From contig JAGOQU010000001.1 of the NCBI GenBank assembly GCA_018063165.1, forward strand, positions 130,330 through 194,329: a stretch of 64,000 bases of DNA, in the 5' to 3' direction. Position 1 is the stretch's first letter. Each line of letters starts with the position of its first letter. Shown piece by piece: positions 12,717-52,655 of the stretch. The notes below the pieces were generated by a model. The model saw nothing but the letters and a program-made list of their open reading frames with translations, searched no databases and was not told where the DNA came from. The translations under genes were made by a program, and so were the position numbers. Source of the stretch: Minisyncoccota bacterium (GTDB lineage Bacteria > Patescibacteriota > Minisyncoccia > Phycocordibacterales > UBA5272).

Positions 12717-12775
12717 ATTTAAAAGTATACAGTAGATTTTTTAATGTGCGTATTTGTATGTATTTATATACTACA

Positions 12776-12808
12776 AAAAAGTAGTCCCAATTGAGACTAC
12801 TTTGTTAG
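12776..12808. terminator. Bidirectional hairpin terminator
   Basis: AGTAGTCccaattgaGACTACT flanked by an A-run and a T-run. It serves the minus-strand gene ending at 12815. Confidence 0.5.
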
Positions 12809-12814
12809 TTGTAT

Positions 12815-13051
12815 TTATTTTGTTGACTTGGTAATTTTTGCTCTACCATAATCAACAATTGGATTCATTTGTATCTGAGCGTTGTAGTTTTCAACATATT
12901 CGATGATGCCTCTCTTACTTAGATACATGGGTGTAATATCCCAGAGAGGGCTATTTTTTGTTTTGTAAAGCCATTGCCACACTTTGTTCTTGTTAACAAC
13001 AGGTGGAATGTTTTGATTTTCTGAATTTACAATAACTAGATCTGCTTCCAT
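12815..13051 (-). CDS. Hypothetical protein
   Basis: 78-aa ORF with a GAAAGG RBS. It could be a fragment of a larger ancestral gene. Confidence 0.4.
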   Translation of the reverse strand: MEADLVIVNSENQNIPPVVNKNKVWQWLYKTKNSPLWDITPMYLSKRGIIEYVENYNAQIQMNPIVDYGRAKITKSTK

Positions 13052-13135
13052 TGGTATACCTTTCGTAACAAAATACCTTTTTTATAATAATATTATTTTA
13101 TATTTATGTCAATTTTTACTTTAAGATTTTTAATG

Positions 13136-13381
13136 TTAGAGTCCGTTAATATCTTCGTTGATATTAGTAATGTCAGCTTCAAAATTTTCTCCATCTATTG
13201 CATTAAGATCAGCATCTATAGAACTAGGTTCAGGTGTTACTACTTCTGGTGTTTTGACCTGCTCAGGTGTTGTTAGTACTGTTTCAGGAGATTTTTGCAT
13301 ATCTTTTTTTGAATAGTAGAAAACAACACTAATAATGATAAGGATTACTGCAACAACTGAGATGATTATTTTTTTGTTCAT
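13136..13381 (-). CDS. Small membrane-anchored acidic protein
   Basis: N-terminal TM (IISVVAVILIIISVVFYY) then an acidic P/E/T-rich tail. Confidence 0.4.
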   Translation of the reverse strand: MNKKIIISVVAVILIIISVVFYYSKKDMQKSPETVLTTPEQVKTPEVVTPEPSSIDADLNAIDGENFEADITNINEDINGL

Positions 13382-13399
13382 AGTATATATACAATAGTA

Positions 13400-18274: not shown

Positions 18275-19384
18275 ATGACACCTGTTAACAAAAAAACAAA
18301 ACTTCAAACAATAAAAAAGCCACTAGATTTATTTTCTGTACAGAAAAAAGAGGTAAAGAATAAGAATGCACTTAAAATGATTGATCTCTTTGCTGGCATT
18401 GGTGGCATACGACAGGGATTTGAAAGTGTTGGGTGTGAATCTGTTTTTTCATCAGAGTGGGATGCTCCCGCTCAAAAAACTTATGCTGAAAATTTTGGAG
18501 ATATTCCGTATGGTGATATAACTCAAATTGATCCTGAACAAATTCCTTCCTTTGATATTCTGTTGGCTGGATTCCCATGTCAGCCATTTTCTCAGGCAGG
18601 AAAAAAGCTTGGTTTAGCTGATACACGTGGAACACTTTTCTTTGATATAGCTAAGATAGTTAATCATCACAGACCAAGAGTTGTTTTTTTGGAGAATGTG
18701 AAGAGATTTAAAAGTCATGATGGTGGAAAAACATTTGAAACAATTAAATCAATTTTAGAGGATCTTGGTTATCAGATTCATGCTAAAGTTCTGAACGCAA
18801 GGGATTTTGGAGTTCCTCAAAACAGAGAAAGAATTTATATTATTGGATTCCTTGGAGAAGTTGATTTTTCATTTCCAGAACCATTAGGAAAAAAGACTAG
18901 ACTTGGTGATATTTTAGAAAAAAATGTAGATTCTAAGTACACTCTTTCAGACAAGCTTTGGGCAGGACACCAAAGAAGAAAGAAAGAGCACGCCGCTAAG
19001 GGGTATGGTTTTGGGTATTCTATGTTTAACGAGAAGTCAGAATATACTAGTACAATTTCTGCGCGATACTATAAAGATGGTTCGGAAATATTAATTGAGC
19101 AAGAAGGTAAAAACCCAAGAAAGCTCACACCTCGTGAAGCTGCAAGACTGCAAGGTTTTCCTGATACTTATAAACTTCCAGTAAGTGATATGCAAGTATA
19201 TAAACAGTTTGGTAATAGTGTAGCTGTGCCAGTTATTAAAGCACTTGCTAAAGAAATTGATAAAGCTCTTAAAACTTTGAAACAGAAGAAAACTTCAGAT
19301 CTTAGTAATATTGATATTGATAAAATTAAAGCGGACAGTGTTAAAACTGTTATGTTGAATCTTAAAAAAGAAGCTACTGTTTAG
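18275..19384 (+). CDS. DNA (cytosine-5)-methyltransferase
   Basis: Motif I DLFAGIGG, motif IV GFPCQPFSQAG, motif VI FLENVKRF, and the C-terminal QFGNSVAVPV. Confidence 0.95.
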   Translation: MTPVNKKTKLQTIKKPLDLFSVQKKEVKNKNALKMIDLFAGIGGIRQGFESVGCESVFSSEWDAPAQKTYAENFGDIPYGDITQIDPEQIPSFDILLAGFPCQPFSQAGKKLGLADTRGTLFFDIAKIVNHHRPRVVFLENVKRFKSHDGGKTFETIKSILEDLGYQIHAKVLNARDFGVPQNRERIYIIGFLGEVDFSFPEPLGKKTRLGDILEKNVDSKYTLSDKLWAGHQRRKKEHAAKGYGFGYSMFNEKSEYTSTISARYYKDGSEILIEQEGKNPRKLTPREAARLQGFPDTYKLPVSDMQVYKQFGNSVAVPVIKALAKEIDKALKTLKQKKTSDLSNIDIDKIKADSVKTVMLNLKKEATV

Positions 19385-21640: not shown

Positions 21641-21714
21641 TGGCTGGGGTACAAGGACTCGAACCTCGATACTCAGGACCAAAACCTGATGTCCTACCAT
21701 TAGACGATACCCCA
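21641..21714 (-). tRNA. tRNA-Gln (anticodon UUG)
   Basis: My own fold. Acceptor TGGGGTA/TACCCCA with U1-A72 (typical of bacterial tRNA-Gln). D-stem GTCT/GGAC. Anticodon stem TCAGG/CCTGA with loop TTTTGGT. T-arm CGAGG-TTCGAGT-CCTTG, discriminator G, then CCA. Confidence 0.85.
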
Positions 21715-39880: not shown

Positions 39881-39890
39881 TCAAAAAAAA

Positions 39891-39918
39891 GACCCCAGCA
39901 CACATTAATGCTGGGGTT
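39891..39918 (+). terminator. Rho-independent terminator
   Basis: GACCCCAGCAcacattaaTGCTGGGGTT. Confidence 0.7.
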
Positions 39919-40114
39919 TAGAGTATTTGGTGAATCGGACACCCGACACTTTTCATACTCTACGTAAAGAAATTATTCAGAGGGTGGGAGGTGAAAATCT
40001 CTGAAACGTCTACGCACGTAATATTGTAACACATTTATTTAAGTTGTCTATTCCATACAAAATAATGTGTATTTATCCACACTATTTTTTTGTAAAAGTC
40101 TATATACTGTATAT

Positions 40115-40180
40115 ATGGCAAAAGAAGAAAAATATCATAAAAAAGAACAAAAGAAACCAAAGAAAGTTGTTACTAAATAA
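40115..40180 (+). CDS. Candidate 21-aa lysine-rich micro-protein (MAKEEKYHKKEQKKPKKVVTK)
   Basis: The ATG lies 8 nt after a TATACT -10 box, which implies a leaderless transcript. The stop is followed immediately by a strong terminator (40191-40221, AAAACCCCATCGACgtaGTCGATGGGGTTTT). Confidence 0.3.
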   Translation: MAKEEKYHKKEQKKPKKVVTK

Positions 40181-40242
40181 TGTGTAGTAGAAAACCCCAT
40201 CGACGTAGTCGATGGGGTTTTGTTTTGAAGGTATACCTCCTG

Positions 40243-42173: not shown

Positions 42174-42284
42174 AAAGAAAAGTGCGAAACCGAAAGGTTT
42201 CGCACTTTTTACATTCTTTGAAGTGTCATATATTTCATTTCTTTTTCTTGTACCTTTTTTTCTTTTTCGTGTGGAGGGAGAGAT
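42174..42284. repeat. 111-bp direct repeat, copy A (3' coding end plus terminator)
   Basis: Identical apart from 1 mismatch to 42866-42976. Confidence 0.8.
42177..42210. terminator. Bidirectional terminator (copy A of the shared 3' module)
   Basis: AAAAGTGCGAAACCgaaaGGTTTCGCACTTTTT between convergent genes. Confidence 0.75.
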
Positions 42285-42766
42285 GTTGTGCAAAGAAGAT
42301 ATTCAATTAGAACTGACAAAAATATCAACATTGAAAAACAAAGAAAATTAAACAAAAAAATTAACTCAATAAGATTTGTTTCATTTTTACTGCCAAGAAA
42401 TATAAAGAAAGGAAGAGAAAGTATACAAAGAAAACTAACTAAAATTAGTATAATTCTAGGCTCTTTCCTATTTTTTATTTCAGCTGGAAGTATTCCGAGC
42501 GGCTGGTTTCTTTTCGAAATCATTTCCCATATCATGAGGTTTAAGGTGCATGTAGTCATAAAAACTAAATTTATGATTGCACTTATAAAATTACTTTCAA
42601 GTATAAATCTTGTTGTTCCTACGAGAAAGAAAACAAGTAATCCTACCCTTATAAGTGATAAGCAAAAGTTAGTCAAGTCTTTCCTAGTTATTTTTGTATA
42701 GAGTTCAAATTGCCTTACAGACCATTGTGTCATGTTAATAAGTCCTGTATCGATTGTAGAGAACAT
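42209..42766 (-). CDS. 4-TM membrane protein, paralogue A
   Basis: 185 aa. The N-terminus MFSTIDTGLI and the C-terminal 25 aa SLPPHEKEKKVQEKEMKYMTLQRM are shared with paralogue B. Confidence 0.5.
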   Translation of the reverse strand: MFSTIDTGLINMTQWSVRQFELYTKITRKDLTNFCLSLIRVGLLVFFLVGTTRFILESNFISAIINLVFMTTCTLNLMIWEMISKRNQPLGILPAEIKNRKEPRIILILVSFLCILSLPFFIFLGSKNETNLIELIFLFNFLCFSMLIFLSVLIEYLLCTTSLPPHEKEKKVQEKEMKYMTLQRM

Positions 42767-42865
42767 GCTAATTCCTTTATATTTGAATAAATATTGTTGA
42801 AAATCTAAGAGTAGACTACATTAACATCCGTCTTTCGTCAACAAGGTGTAAGATATTTTTTGATA

Positions 42866-42976
42866 AAAGAAAAGTGCGAAACCGAAAGGTTTCGCACTTT
42901 TTACATTCTTTGAAGTGTCATATATTTTATTTCTTTTTCTTGTACCTTTTTTTCTTTTTCGTGTGGAGGTAGAGAT
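42866..42976. repeat. 111-bp direct repeat, copy B
   Basis: See copy A. Confidence 0.8.
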
Positions 42977-43437
42977 CTGGCACACAAAAAATATTCAACC
43001 ATTATGGTAAGAAATAATTGAAAAACAATACATACGCTATTTTTATATATATCATGTTCAACAAGAAAAAGGAGATACAAAAAGAAAATATTAATAGGAA
43101 AGGAAAAGAGCCAAATAAGTCTGATATCTTTTCTTGAAATAATTACCTTCGGTAAAGTACTTTCTTGTTTTTGTTTTTTTATTATCTTGTATTGTTGATT
43201 ACTAAGTATAAAAGTAAGCACACAATACATAATAAGATTAAAGAAAGCCGCTAAGCGTTGTAAAATAATATCTTGATTGTTGTAGACTAAAAATACAATA
43301 GAAATAATACTAACTATTTTTAGAAAAGTGGTACAAATATAAATAAGTTTTTTCTTAGTTATTGATGTATGTATTTCTAGTGTATGTAGTATTTTTTCAC
43401 TAATTTCTATTAATGCAGGATCAATTACAGAGAACAT
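42901..43437 (-). CDS. 4-TM membrane protein, paralogue B
   Basis: 178 aa. N-terminus MFSVIDPALI, the same C-terminal tail and the same terminator as paralogue A. The central region is divergent. Confidence 0.5.
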   Translation of the reverse strand: MFSVIDPALIEISEKILHTLEIHTSITKKKLIYICTTFLKIVSIISIVFLVYNNQDIILQRLAAFFNLIMYCVLTFILSNQQYKIIKKQKQESTLPKVIISRKDIRLIWLFSFPINIFFLYLLFLVEHDIYKNSVCIVFQLFLTIMVEYFLCARSLPPHEKEKKVQEKEIKYMTLQRM

Positions 43438-48852: not shown

Positions 48853-49478
48853 TTAGTATTCTAAACGATACGTTTTATAATTTCTTTTTGTTGGTGTTAT
48901 AACTTCCATGAAAGAAAATTTTTCTTGTATATCAATATTTTCTTTTACTGCTTCTGTCACAAAAATTTCTCCTGTTTTTGCAATATCTTCTCCTAGTTTA
49001 CTTGCTGCATTTACTTCTTCACCGAAAACATCAGTGTCTCCTATCTTTAGTACTTTTCCGTAGCCAAGGCCTACACATAAAAGTACTTGTTCTTCTTTAC
49101 TTTTCTTTTTGTTGTATATTTTGAGTGATTTTTGCATCTTGACCGAAGCATGAAGTGCTTTAGAAATATTTCTAAAAATAACTAAATAGCTATCGCCTTC
49201 AATTTTTAAAAGTATACCGTCATGATCTTCTAATATAGGAATAAGCAATCTTTGAGATTCTTGTATTGTTTGCAAAAAATGTATAATACCAAACTTTTCT
49301 ACATGTCTAGAAAACCAGATAGATCTGTAAACATGACACACCATTCTTCTCCAAACAAATCCCATATTCTTTTGTCTATTTCTTTTTTATTGGTACCTTT
49401 TTGTAATCGTTCTGTAATAAGATTTTCCAATCTATCTTCCGAAGCTGAAGTGAGTATAAGTTTTTGTAAGTCATAAGG
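48853..49478 (-). pseudogene. Stand-alone class III nucleotidyl cyclase catalytic domain, split by a frameshift at an A4 run (plus-strand 49311-49314)
   Basis: The downstream frame gives ...KIEGDSYLVIF...GLGYGKVLKIGD...FGEEVNAASKLGE (cyclase motifs). The upstream frame, my own translation, gives ...RIWDLFGEEWCVMFTDLSGFLDM*, which carries the first metal-binding Asp in F(T)DLSGF. One extra T on the minus strand would fuse them as ...TDLSGFSRHVEKFG... Confidence 0.55.
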
Positions 49479-49544
49479 TGTGCAAGTGATATATAATATC
49501 TATATTCTAGTATTATTTTATGAAATAGTAAAAGTGTATAAAAT

Positions 49545-49585
49545 AAAAAGGGTGATTCGCGTAGCGAATCACCATTTTGTTTATG
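49545..49585 (-). terminator. Terminator downstream of the PhoH2 gene
   Basis: GGTGATTCGCgtaGCGAATCACC with a T-run on the minus strand. Confidence 0.65.
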
Positions 49586-49593
49586 TTTATATA

Positions 49594-51158
49594 TTACAAT
49601 ACATCATTTGCATAACTTGCAAGTCTGGAACGTTCACCTGTTGGAAGTATGAGATGTCCACCATATTTCCATCCTTTGAAGCGTTCTACAACATATGTAA
49701 GACCAGAAGATCCTTCTGTCATATATGGTGCGTCAATTTGCGTTAAATTTCCAAGGAGAACCATTTTTGTACCAGGACCTGCACGCGTTACAAGTAATTT
49801 TGTTTGCTTTTGTGTCAGGTTTTGAGCTTCGTCTACTATTACAAATTTATTGAGAAATGTTCTTCCTCTCATGAAGCCTAAGGTTTTTACTGAAATCATT
49901 TCAGTGATTTCTTTTGCTTTTTCTCGTTTTTCCATTTCCCTTATTGTGTGAGAATGGTTAGATGTACTAGGTCGTTCAATTTTTTTTGTTTCACTGGTTT
50001 GGGTGTATTCAGCAAGAAACTCTAAATTGTCGTGTAATGCACCCATCCATGGATCCATCTTTTCTTTTTCTGTTCCAGGTAGGAATCCGATATCTTCACT
50101 TGTAGAAATTAATGCTCTTGTTATGATAATTTCTGAGTATATCCCTTTTCTTACTTGATCAATGCCCGCAGCTAATGCAAGGAGTGTTTTTCCTGTACCT
50201 GCAACACCAAGTAAAGTAACAATGTCAATATTTTGATCCATAAGCAGATTTGCAGCATAATTCTGCTCTCTGTTACGAGTCATAATACCAAGAATATTAT
50301 TTTTAGGTATCGAATAATCAGTAATTGTTTCAAGAATTGTTACTGCGTCATCTTTATCAACAATTCGAAGATCTTTTTTAAAAGATGACTCTCTTAAATC
50401 GTAAATAAATTCATTAGGAAGTAGTGGCTTTGCAAGTTCGTGAGGTGTTTTATACTGAGTCTGTACTCCATTTTTAGAAGAGGCAAAATTATCAAGCTTG
50501 TCCCAAAATCTCTGATGAAGTGCAGTTGATCCTGGGTATAGTAAATCTATATCTTGAATTACCACGTCATTAAAATAATCCTGAACCAGAATGCCTTGAG
50601 TTTTTGCTTCAATAAACATATTGTTATCTTTGGTTACAAGAATAACTTGATATTTACCTTCAAATTTTTCAGTAAGCTTTTTGGCAACAGAAAGAATTTT
50701 TGTATCTGCTTTTGTTGTACTCTCGTCAATTTCAATATCGTTTGTCTGAAGATACAGTCTACCAGTTGCAATTTTTTGGACGCTTCCTTAAGTGGGATAC
50801 CGTCTCTAATGTTCTGAGAATGTTTAGATAATTCACTTTTTAGAGTTCGAGAAAACTCTCTACTATTTCTTGCTGTATCGTCGGTACCTTTTTTGTGATT
50901 ATCAAGCTCAGCGCGTACAACTGTTGGTATGTAGACATCATTATCTTCAAATTTAAAGATACAATTAGGGTCACTAAGAATAACATTTGTATCCAAGATA
51001 AACAATTTCCGAAGGGGAATGATTTTTACTTTTTTTCTTTCAACTTGAGAAAGATTTCCTTTTTTTTGAGATGACAAGTTTACTGCTTGTTGTTGTAGAC
51101 GTGAACGAGTTTGCTTTCCTTCAAATACATTCCGAGTGGAATTATTTTTTGGTAACAT
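49594..51158 (-). pseudogene. PhoH2 (PIN domain fused to PhoH-like ATPase), interrupted by a frameshift at a T6/A6 homopolymer (50773-50778)
   Basis: The upstream ORF (50634-51158) holds the N-terminal half of the PIN domain (FILDTNVILSDPN...VVRAEL). The alternative frame continues IATGRLYLQTNDIEIDESTTKADTKILSVAKKL...VILVTKDNNMFIEAK straight into the PhoH ORF (Walker A GVAGTGKT, then FVIVDEAQN). A7 instead of A6 on the minus strand would restore ...ASKKIATG... Confidence 0.7.
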
Positions 51159-51271: not shown

Positions 51272-51850
51272 ATGGGTAAAATAAAATTAGAATTTCAAAA
51301 AGAAATACTTCTTTTAAATAAAAATATAGTGTATACACATAAAAAGAGTAAAACTAGTTCTAGTATTAAACTTGCTGTGTATAAAAATGGAGATTTTATT
51401 GTTACATCGCCATTTTTTGTAACTGAATCGTCTGTCTATAATTTTATTATTGCTAAAGCATCTTGGATATTAAAAAAAATTGAGTATTTTAAAAATAAAC
51501 CACAACAAGAAAGAATTATACATTCAGCTGGTGAAATTATTGCATACAAAAAACAGGCAGAAGATATTCTTTCAAAAAGATTGCTACACTTTAATGCACA
51601 TTATAATTTTTCATATAATAGAGTGACTATTAAAAATGTAACTACACGATGGGGGAGTTGTTCAAGTAAAAGTAATCTTAATTTTAATTACAAGATGGCA
51701 CTTTTACCAGAAGAATTAGTGGATTATATTGTTGTACATGAACTTTGTCATTTACGAGAGATGAATCATTCAAAAAAGTTTTGGCAATTGGTTGAAGAAA
51801 AAATTCCTAATCATAAAGAATTGCGAAAGCAATTAAAATTCTACCAATAG
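51272..51850 (+). CDS. YgjP-like (DUF45) metal-dependent hydrolase with an HExxH motif
   Basis: TTRWGSCSSKSNLNFNYKMALLPEELVDYIVVHELCHLREMNHSKKFW. Confidence 0.8.
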   Translation: MGKIKLEFQKEILLLNKNIVYTHKKSKTSSSIKLAVYKNGDFIVTSPFFVTESSVYNFIIAKASWILKKIEYFKNKPQQERIIHSAGEIIAYKKQAEDILSKRLLHFNAHYNFSYNRVTIKNVTTRWGSCSSKSNLNFNYKMALLPEELVDYIVVHELCHLREMNHSKKFWQLVEEKIPNHKELRKQLKFYQ

Positions 51851-51905
51851 ATGTAAAACATAAAAGTATCTAAATTACAATAAATATGCTATACTGTCTA
51901 GTATT

Positions 51906-52655
51906 ATGACAGAAAAAATCTATCTATATGGTCGAAACCCTTTAAAAGAGGCACTTCTTGCAATTAAACGCGGAAAGACATCTCTTATTGAAAAACTTTT
52001 TATTACAAAACAAGCAGAAGAAGATCCTAAAATAATGAGTCTTATTCAAGCTAATAAACTTACGTATGATGTTGTAACGTATCAAGAAATTGAAAGTATG
52101 GTTGGTAAAGGAGTTGTTCATCAGGGTGTATGTGCTCTCCTTAAAGAAAGTGAGTTATATACTTCATTTGAAAAAGTTTTAGCTACAGCTAAAGCTAAAG
52201 AAGGTAATTCAGTTTTTGTGCTTCTTGATAAACTTCAGGACCCTCACAATGTTGGAGCAATTATTCGTTCATCTGTAGCTTTTGGCGCAGATGCTATCCT
52301 TCTGCCAGAGCATGATCAAGCCCTTCTTTCTGGTACAGTTATAAAAACTTCTTCTGGCATGTCTTTCGCTATTCCTGTAGTAAAAATTGGTAACACTAAT
52401 ACACTATTAACTAAATTAAAAGATAATGGTTTTTGGACATATGGCTTAACCGGTGAAGGTGAAACAAAATTGCAATCAGTAACATTTGATACAAATACAG
52501 TAATCGTAGTGGGAGGTGAAGGAGATGGTGTACGTACAAAGACTCTAGAATTGTGTGATTTTAGATTATCTATTGAAACAAGTGATTTGTGTGAATCACT
52601 TAATGCATCAAACGCAAGTGCTGTTGTGCTTTATGAATGGAAAAAGCAAAATTAG
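51906..52655 (+). CDS. rlmB: SpoU-family 23S rRNA 2'-O-methyltransferase (RlmB-like)
   Basis: N-terminal LYGRNPLKEAL, then LDKLQDPHNVGAIIRS and VVGGEGDGV. Confidence 0.85.
   Translation: MTEKIYLYGRNPLKEALLAIKRGKTSLIEKLFITKQAEEDPKIMSLIQANKLTYDVVTYQEIESMVGKGVVHQGVCALLKESELYTSFEKVLATAKAKEGNSVFVLLDKLQDPHNVGAIIRSSVAFGADAILLPEHDQALLSGTVIKTSSGMSFAIPVVKIGNTNTLLTKLKDNGFWTYGLTGEGETKLQSVTFDTNTVIVVGGEGDGVRTKTLELCDFRLSIETSDLCESLNASNASAVVLYEWKKQN

Follow-up and report, generated by a model that had tools for sequence, protein, structure and literature searches.

The closest described counterpart of the locus reported here is Ma1120 of Mycobacterium avium, with Rv1120c of M. tuberculosis (PDB 4wp8, 4wp9, 5d0e), a minimal stand-alone class III adenylyl cyclase that comprises a single cyclase homology domain without a sensor domain and carries the adenine-specifying Lys/Asp pair (PMC4215837). 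In class III cyclases this Lys/Asp pair specifies ATP, and most of these enzymes possess an Asn-Arg transition-state pair; Ma1120 is active without the Asn, so that deviations from the pair are compatible with activity (PMC4215837). As relayed in the same source from Shenoy et al. 2005, M. avium has a functional gene, and its orthologue in M. tuberculosis is a pseudogene. Further points of comparison are the PycC cyclases of Pycsar, which share the class III cyclase fold and small size, and a set of ~207-aa 'adenylate/guanylate cyclase domain-containing proteins' from L. perolatii, L. wolffii and other bacteria. LA_4008 from Leptospira interrogans is a class III soluble adenylate cyclase without transmembrane segments (PMC3789758), yet it is multidomain, is restricted to pathogenic Leptospira and does not belong to the 207-aa family; the literature on adenylate cyclases of Leptospira pointed to it, and it was set aside as a different protein.

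In the DNA studied here, which we refer to as the window (the whole analysed stretch of 64,000 nucleotides, G+C 32%), the minus strand at 48853-49478 holds a cyclase domain distributed over two reading frames, and the sequence reads exactly as the original prediction had claimed. Like Ma1120, its best match in both sequence and fold, the encoded protein has a single cyclase homology domain, no sensor domain and the Lys/Asp pair, and the division between the broken window copy and its intact orthologues mirrors the pseudogene/functional split between M. tuberculosis and M. avium. The identity to Ma1120 is, however, only 20-25%, and whereas Ma1120 has replaced the Asn (A164) and kept the Arg (R168), the window family has kept the Asn (N156) and carries Lys instead of Arg (K160). 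Compared with Ma1120, the window family also has ~41 extra N-terminal residues, which form two helices, and its conservation between phyla is much higher (55-75% identity).

After repair of its reading frame, the window gene is an orthologue of the ~207-aa proteins, with 65-86% identity over the full length and the same length, N-terminus and invariant residues. In contrast to the listed relatives, which are intact except for the sister strain L086, the window copy contains two frameshifts. The PADLOC PycC models gave weak matches (best 27 bits, E 4e-7; below the generic PF00211 score), and a defence-system reading was rejected on its genomic context, as no conserved neighbour emerged among 80 loci. 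Unlike Pycsar, which forms a conserved two-gene unit, the window cyclase has no adjoining gene for an effector activated by a cyclic nucleotide (TM or TIR); it differs further in its Lys/Asp purine-type specificity residues and in the very high cross-phylum conservation of its family, which is unlike that of defence genes.

Reading frames and repair of the cyclase gene

Translation of the minus strand identified 48853-49474 as the coding region of a class III cyclase domain, which is composed of the following features:

48853..49474, minus strand: whole pseudogene of a 207-aa class III (predicted adenylate) cyclase, from ATG 49474-49472 to TAA 48855-48853
49461..49465, minus strand: frameshift site 1, A5; A6 in the sister strain and A7 in an 82%-identical relative
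49311..49314, minus strand: frameshift site 2, T4, directly past the first metal-binding Asp (FTDLSGF/SRH); T5 in the sister strain and in relatives
49299..49430, minus strand: middle segment, a 43-aa ORF with a TTG start, covering family residues 16-55, followed by an LDM tail in the wrong frame; contains D51
48853..49365, minus strand: 170-aa ORF (gene-finder call P0002), first 17 residues out of frame; from FSRHVEKFG on, cyclase residues 55-207 with D95, K91, D149, N156 and K160

The upstream minus-strand frame reads ...RIWDLFGEEWCVMFTDLSGFLDM and terminates as ...EEWCVMFTDLSGFLDM, and the 170-aa ORF (FSRHVEKFG...KIEGDSYLVIF...GLGYGKVLKIGD...FGEEVNAASKLGE) picks up with FSRHVEKFGIIHF in a frame other than the upstream one. 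The two meet at AAAA 49311-49314 on the plus strand, which corresponds to T4 on the coding strand, as the original prediction had located the split. Addition of one base at this position gives the fused reading DLSGFSRHVEKFG, and the proteins of the orthologues run uninterrupted across the junction as CVMFTDLSGFSR(H/N/G)VEKFGIIHFLQ. PF00211, whose gathering score is 21.9 bits, matched the 170-aa ORF alone with 37.4 bits, and after joining the score rose to 49.6 bits (E 4.7e-13), with 8-164 of the 183 profile positions covered; this gain led to the conclusion that the upstream fragment is the true N-terminal part of the cyclase domain, as had been assumed from its translation.

While the break at the A4 run was thus borne out, the expectation that a single added base would restore the gene did not hold. 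DNA alignment to two intact orthologues revealed a second 1-bp deletion in the coding-strand A5 run at 49461-49465: ATG ACT TAC AAA AA at 49474 gives MTYK, and past the A5 run LILTSASEDRLENLI follows in the 'upstream' frame, so that the N-terminus conserved in the orthologues is spread over two frames in the window. It was because of this second frameshift that no ATG had been evident and that a TTG start had been proposed. Repair of the A5 site restores ATG 49474 together with the conserved N-terminus, and the TTG start was dropped in its favour once the second frameshift was known.

One base inserted at each of the two homopolymer sites yields a clean 207-aa ORF with 86% identity to the intact syntenic orthologue P0001. 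At residues that are at least 90% conserved in the family, the repaired ORF shows one deviation, L172F, and P0001 likewise has Phe at this position. Left unrepaired, translation from ATG 49474 reaches a stop after 32 codons, and D51 lies in a different frame from the segment D95-K160. As the long 170-aa ORF lacks D51, the first metal-binding Asp, no active enzyme is possible in this strain. A search of the cyclase for an earlier shared inactivating change (catalytic missense or start-codon loss) found none. In terms of annotation, 48853-49474 represents one 207-codon pseudogene with two frameshifts, and the 170-aa 'protein' called by the gene finder is no real product.

Family membership, catalytic residues and fold

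A search of 5.8 billion proteins retrieved 4269 homologues at E<=1e-3, and no intact allele of the cyclase with more than 86% identity was found among these proteins. The closest homologues measure 202-231 aa, mostly 206-209 aa, and the listed ones share the N-terminus M-x-Y-K-K-x-I-L-T-S-A-S-E-D-R-L-E-N-L-I. The family consists of a lone ~207-codon gene that occurs in CPR groups, in Leptospira and other Spirochaetota, and in Acidobacteriota, Verrucomicrobiota, Myxococcota and Methylophilaceae, and its members from CPR and Leptospira still share 55-75% identity. NCBIfam offered no meaningful equivalog for the cyclase, and a literature search found neither a paper on the 207-aa family nor an assay of any member.

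The window holds both metal-binding residues, D51 (FTDLSGF) and D95 (EGDS), at the places first assigned to them, and the two are invariant in 120/120 close homologues. The adenine-specifying pair is conserved almost as strictly, with K91 in 119 and D149 in 117 of the 120, and N156, also present in the window, is invariant in 120/120. The reading of the transition-state Arg as Lys was likewise correct: all 120 close homologues have Lys at this position (K160), and the Asn-Arg pair is not found. Because K160 is invariant in this set, we regard it as a family trait, that is, as a conservative, family-wide variant and not as a sign of local decay.

An AF2 model of P0001, the 86%-identical orthologue, showed the cyclase fold (pLDDT 79) with two helices, residues 11-41, ahead of the catalytic domain. 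Foldseek matched this model best to Ma1120 (TM 0.82, probability 1.00), followed by Cya2, Rv1625c and Rv1900c, and Ma1120 is also the closest solved structure by sequence (E 3e-12). Pfam, the Ma1120 match and the AF2 model agree on a class III cyclase homology domain that stands alone, without a sensor domain, in keeping with the bare cyclase originally described. In the alignment of P0001-P0120, the N-terminal ~41 residues (SASEDRLENLI...IDKRIWDLFGE) match the catalytic core in their conservation across phyla, and this extension is without a counterpart in Ma1120 or the other matched cyclase structures.

Based on these features, we infer that the intact family protein is a homodimeric ATP-to-cAMP cyclase. 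The 207-aa protein would convert ATP to cAMP through standard two-metal catalysis, in which D51 and D95 would bind the metals, K91 and D149 would select adenine, and N156 and K160 would stabilise the transition state, with K160 standing where Arg is usual; a family-specific pair of N-terminal helices would precede the catalytic domain. cAMP is proposed as the product because of the Lys/Asp rule, which is the sole ground for this assignment.

Probable parallel loss of the cyclase and the neighbouring PIN-PhoH gene

The gene upstream of the cyclase on the same strand proved to be broken as well, and the region comprises the following features:

49594..51158, minus strand: PIN-PhoH ATPase pseudogene, split into a 174-aa and a 341-aa ORF
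50772..50777, minus strand: PIN-PhoH frameshift, a 1-bp deletion in an A6 run; A7 in the sister strain and AAGAAAA in a relative
49551..49573, minus strand: strong predicted intrinsic terminator after the PhoH stop codon; 10-bp stem with 6 GC pairs, then a T run
49504..49542, minus strand: promoter-like hexamers upstream of the cyclase ATG; consensus matches only

One inserted base converts the two PIN-PhoH fragments into a clean 521-aa ORF, and the orthologue in the syntenic relative L004 is intact at 521 aa; the 174-aa and 341-aa ORFs should accordingly be annotated as one broken PIN-PhoH gene. No cAMP-binding domain was found in PIN-PhoH. With the terminator between them, the two genes would be transcribed as separate units, and promoter-like sites in the region were no more numerous than in shuffled sequence.

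The vicinity of nucleases and a PIN-PhoH ATPase had been taken to suggest a second-messenger module. An AddA-like UvrD helicase-nuclease and a PD-(D/E)XK protein on the opposite strand make up these 'nucleases'. In a GTDB scan, none of 80 other cyclase-carrying genomes had PIN-PhoH, PD-(D/E)XK or UvrD within 6 kb of the cyclase, and the top neighbour family, common to 13 of the 80 loci, is a generic ABC ATPase ~2 kb away. The order YgjP / PIN-PhoH / cyclase / PD-(D/E)XK / UvrD is kept in some related Paceibacteria species; one close Paceibacteria relative retains the cyclase with no adjoining PIN-PhoH, and another related species has the cyclase in an unrelated context. As the cyclase adjoins PIN-PhoH and the nucleases in this lineage only, and with a terminator lying between PIN-PhoH and the cyclase, the signalling module is not supported.

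To assess the three frameshifts, three other assemblies from two sequencing runs were compared, although the assemblies carrying the window allele may share one project. The window is 100% identical, all three sites included, to contig JAGONQ010000054.1 of GCA_017992935.1 and to a Logan contig from SRR11088409, and SRR11088410 yielded a shorter Logan contig that shows no difference at the two sites in the cyclase. When JGI metagenome contigs were scanned for exact matches to either allele of the T4/T5 site, none was found. L004, which is 82% identical and syntenic, shares 22 genes with the window over 21 kb; only the cyclase and PIN-PhoH gave split matches, and the 20 other shared genes are unbroken. 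The larger intergenic gaps of the window were also searched for broken genes; the gap at 12717-13399 contains two small ORFs that several intervening stops keep apart, and not a split gene.

The listed orthologues of the cyclase are in frame at both of its sites, and all are intact except that of L086, a sister strain from a separate run (Logan SRR12762274) with 98.5% identity to the window, which carries a stop codon. None of the three frameshifts occurs in L086 (A7 in PIN-PhoH, A6 and T5 in the cyclase), and both of its genes are interrupted by nonsense mutations, with GAG changed to TAG at codon 146 of PIN-PhoH and CAA to TAA at codon 72 of the cyclase. Between the window strain and L086, the cyclase has a dN/dS of 0.04 and PIN-PhoH one of 0.16, compared with 0.05-0.13 for four neighbouring genes, so that apart from the disabling mutations themselves no decay signal is seen. 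Because of these low values, both genes appear to have been under purifying selection until very recently. Judging by the sequences, the cyclase and PIN-PhoH were inactivated independently in each strain, and very recently.

We therefore consider that the locus very probably once encoded a small class III adenylate cyclase, presumably homodimeric, and that its inactivation is genuine and very recent. The bacterium belongs to Candidatus Paceibacterota (CPR); proteins of the neighbouring genes bear the name Candidatus Pacebacteria/Paceibacterota in NCBI. On this reading the cyclase was disabled where short A/T runs each lost one base, from A6 to A5 at 49461-49465 and from T5 to T4 at 49311-49314, and the separately transcribed PIN-PhoH neighbour likewise, by A7 to A6, while the 98.5%-identical sister strain lost both genes independently through nonsense mutations. 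Separate knock-outs in two strains suggest that both genes may have become dispensable or disadvantageous in the lineage, and only recently.

A more specific cause would be an adaptive, coupled loss, in which the cyclase and PIN-PhoH form a functional pair, for example in a cAMP-dependent stress or RNA-turnover response, and their knock-outs were positively selected in parallel. This we regard as unlikely. It would account for five independent disabling mutations in two adjacent genes of two strains, with zero in the other four genes of the 5.7-kb region common to both, and for a dN/dS that is otherwise as low as that of the neighbours, which leaves no room for a long neutral phase; moreover, PIN-PhoH and the cyclase are also neighbours in two or more other Paceibacteria species. 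However, this arrangement is missing in the 80 other cyclase-carrying genomes and in the close relative that retains the cyclase, the terminator lies between the two genes, PIN-PhoH is without a detected cAMP-binding domain, and two strains are too few to separate selection from relaxed constraint.

Homopolymer-length errors of sequencing or assembly, which the original prediction had raised and which would leave both the cyclase and PIN-PhoH really intact and functional, are a still less probable alternative to our preferred reading of true inactivation. Each of the three lesions removes a single base from an A/T run of 4-6 bases, the classic error pattern, the repaired ORFs are pristine in other respects, and with window-allele assemblies that possibly all stem from one project a systematic error is formally conceivable. 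Against this, the same sequence was recovered in the NCBI MAG contig and in both Logan assemblies, random homopolymer errors would not cluster within ~2.2 kb while sparing the other 20 shared genes of the 21-kb syntenic block, and the same two genes carry stop codons in the sister strain. Since these stop codons are substitutions, which homopolymer error cannot make, they are not homopolymer artefacts.

Finally, programmed recoding by -1 ribosomal frameshifting or transcriptional slippage, with a regulated low level of full-length cyclase, can practically be dismissed: although the exact conserved protein would result if tRNA-Phe slipped by -1 on G-GUU-UUC or tRNA-Lys did so on the A run, two separate slips would be required in one 207-codon gene, the A/T runs are too short for efficient transcriptional slippage, and the sites are not conserved, being absent from the syntenic relatives, the other homologues examined and the sister strain, which has plain stop codons instead.

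Other features of the window and implications of the loss

Comparison with relatives also drew attention to further differences in gene content. A 169-aa ORF is present in three relatives (L004:7099-7608, L087:3458-3967 and L089:2383-2892); in L004 and L087 it lies between the SpoU methylase and YgjP, whereas in L089, for which neither of these two was called, its place is upstream of PIN-PhoH. The window and L086 both lack it, with only a 55-bp spacer between SpoU and YgjP (window 51850-51906). To all appearances, this absence is another gene loss of the neighbourhood, older than the split between the window strain and L086.

Elsewhere, two tandem paralogous ORFs on the minus strand, at 42209-42766 and 42901-43437 (185 and 178 aa), both start with MFS.ID..LI, and a single 177-aa gene of L004 matches them at 31% and 54% identity, so that 42209-43437 looks like a lineage-specific duplication. 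On the plus strand, the ORF at 18275-19384 contains the cytosine-C5 DNA methyltransferase motif DLFAGIGG and is followed by three minus-strand ORFs up to 21596; the segment 18275-21596 is possibly a restriction-modification island by tRNA-Gln (21641-21714), the only hit of the tRNA and Rfam scans of the window. Between the same two flanking genes, a non-coding gap of ~360-400 bp occurs in both the window (39881-40242) and L004 (L004:18679-19074), and no Rfam or tRNA match was obtained for it.

These findings leave the current understanding of cyclases unchanged. The subfamily to which the broken gene belongs is uncharacterised, though already database-annotated, and with a Lys that always takes the place of the Arg it would be a reasonable biochemical target. 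Should the loss of the cyclase and PIN-PhoH prove to be coupled after all, nature would thereby have supplied a genetic clue to what PhoH-like proteins and this very highly conserved cyclase family do. As very probably a true and very recent inactivation, the locus is a small but clear case of genes lost recently and in parallel from a reduced CPR genome.
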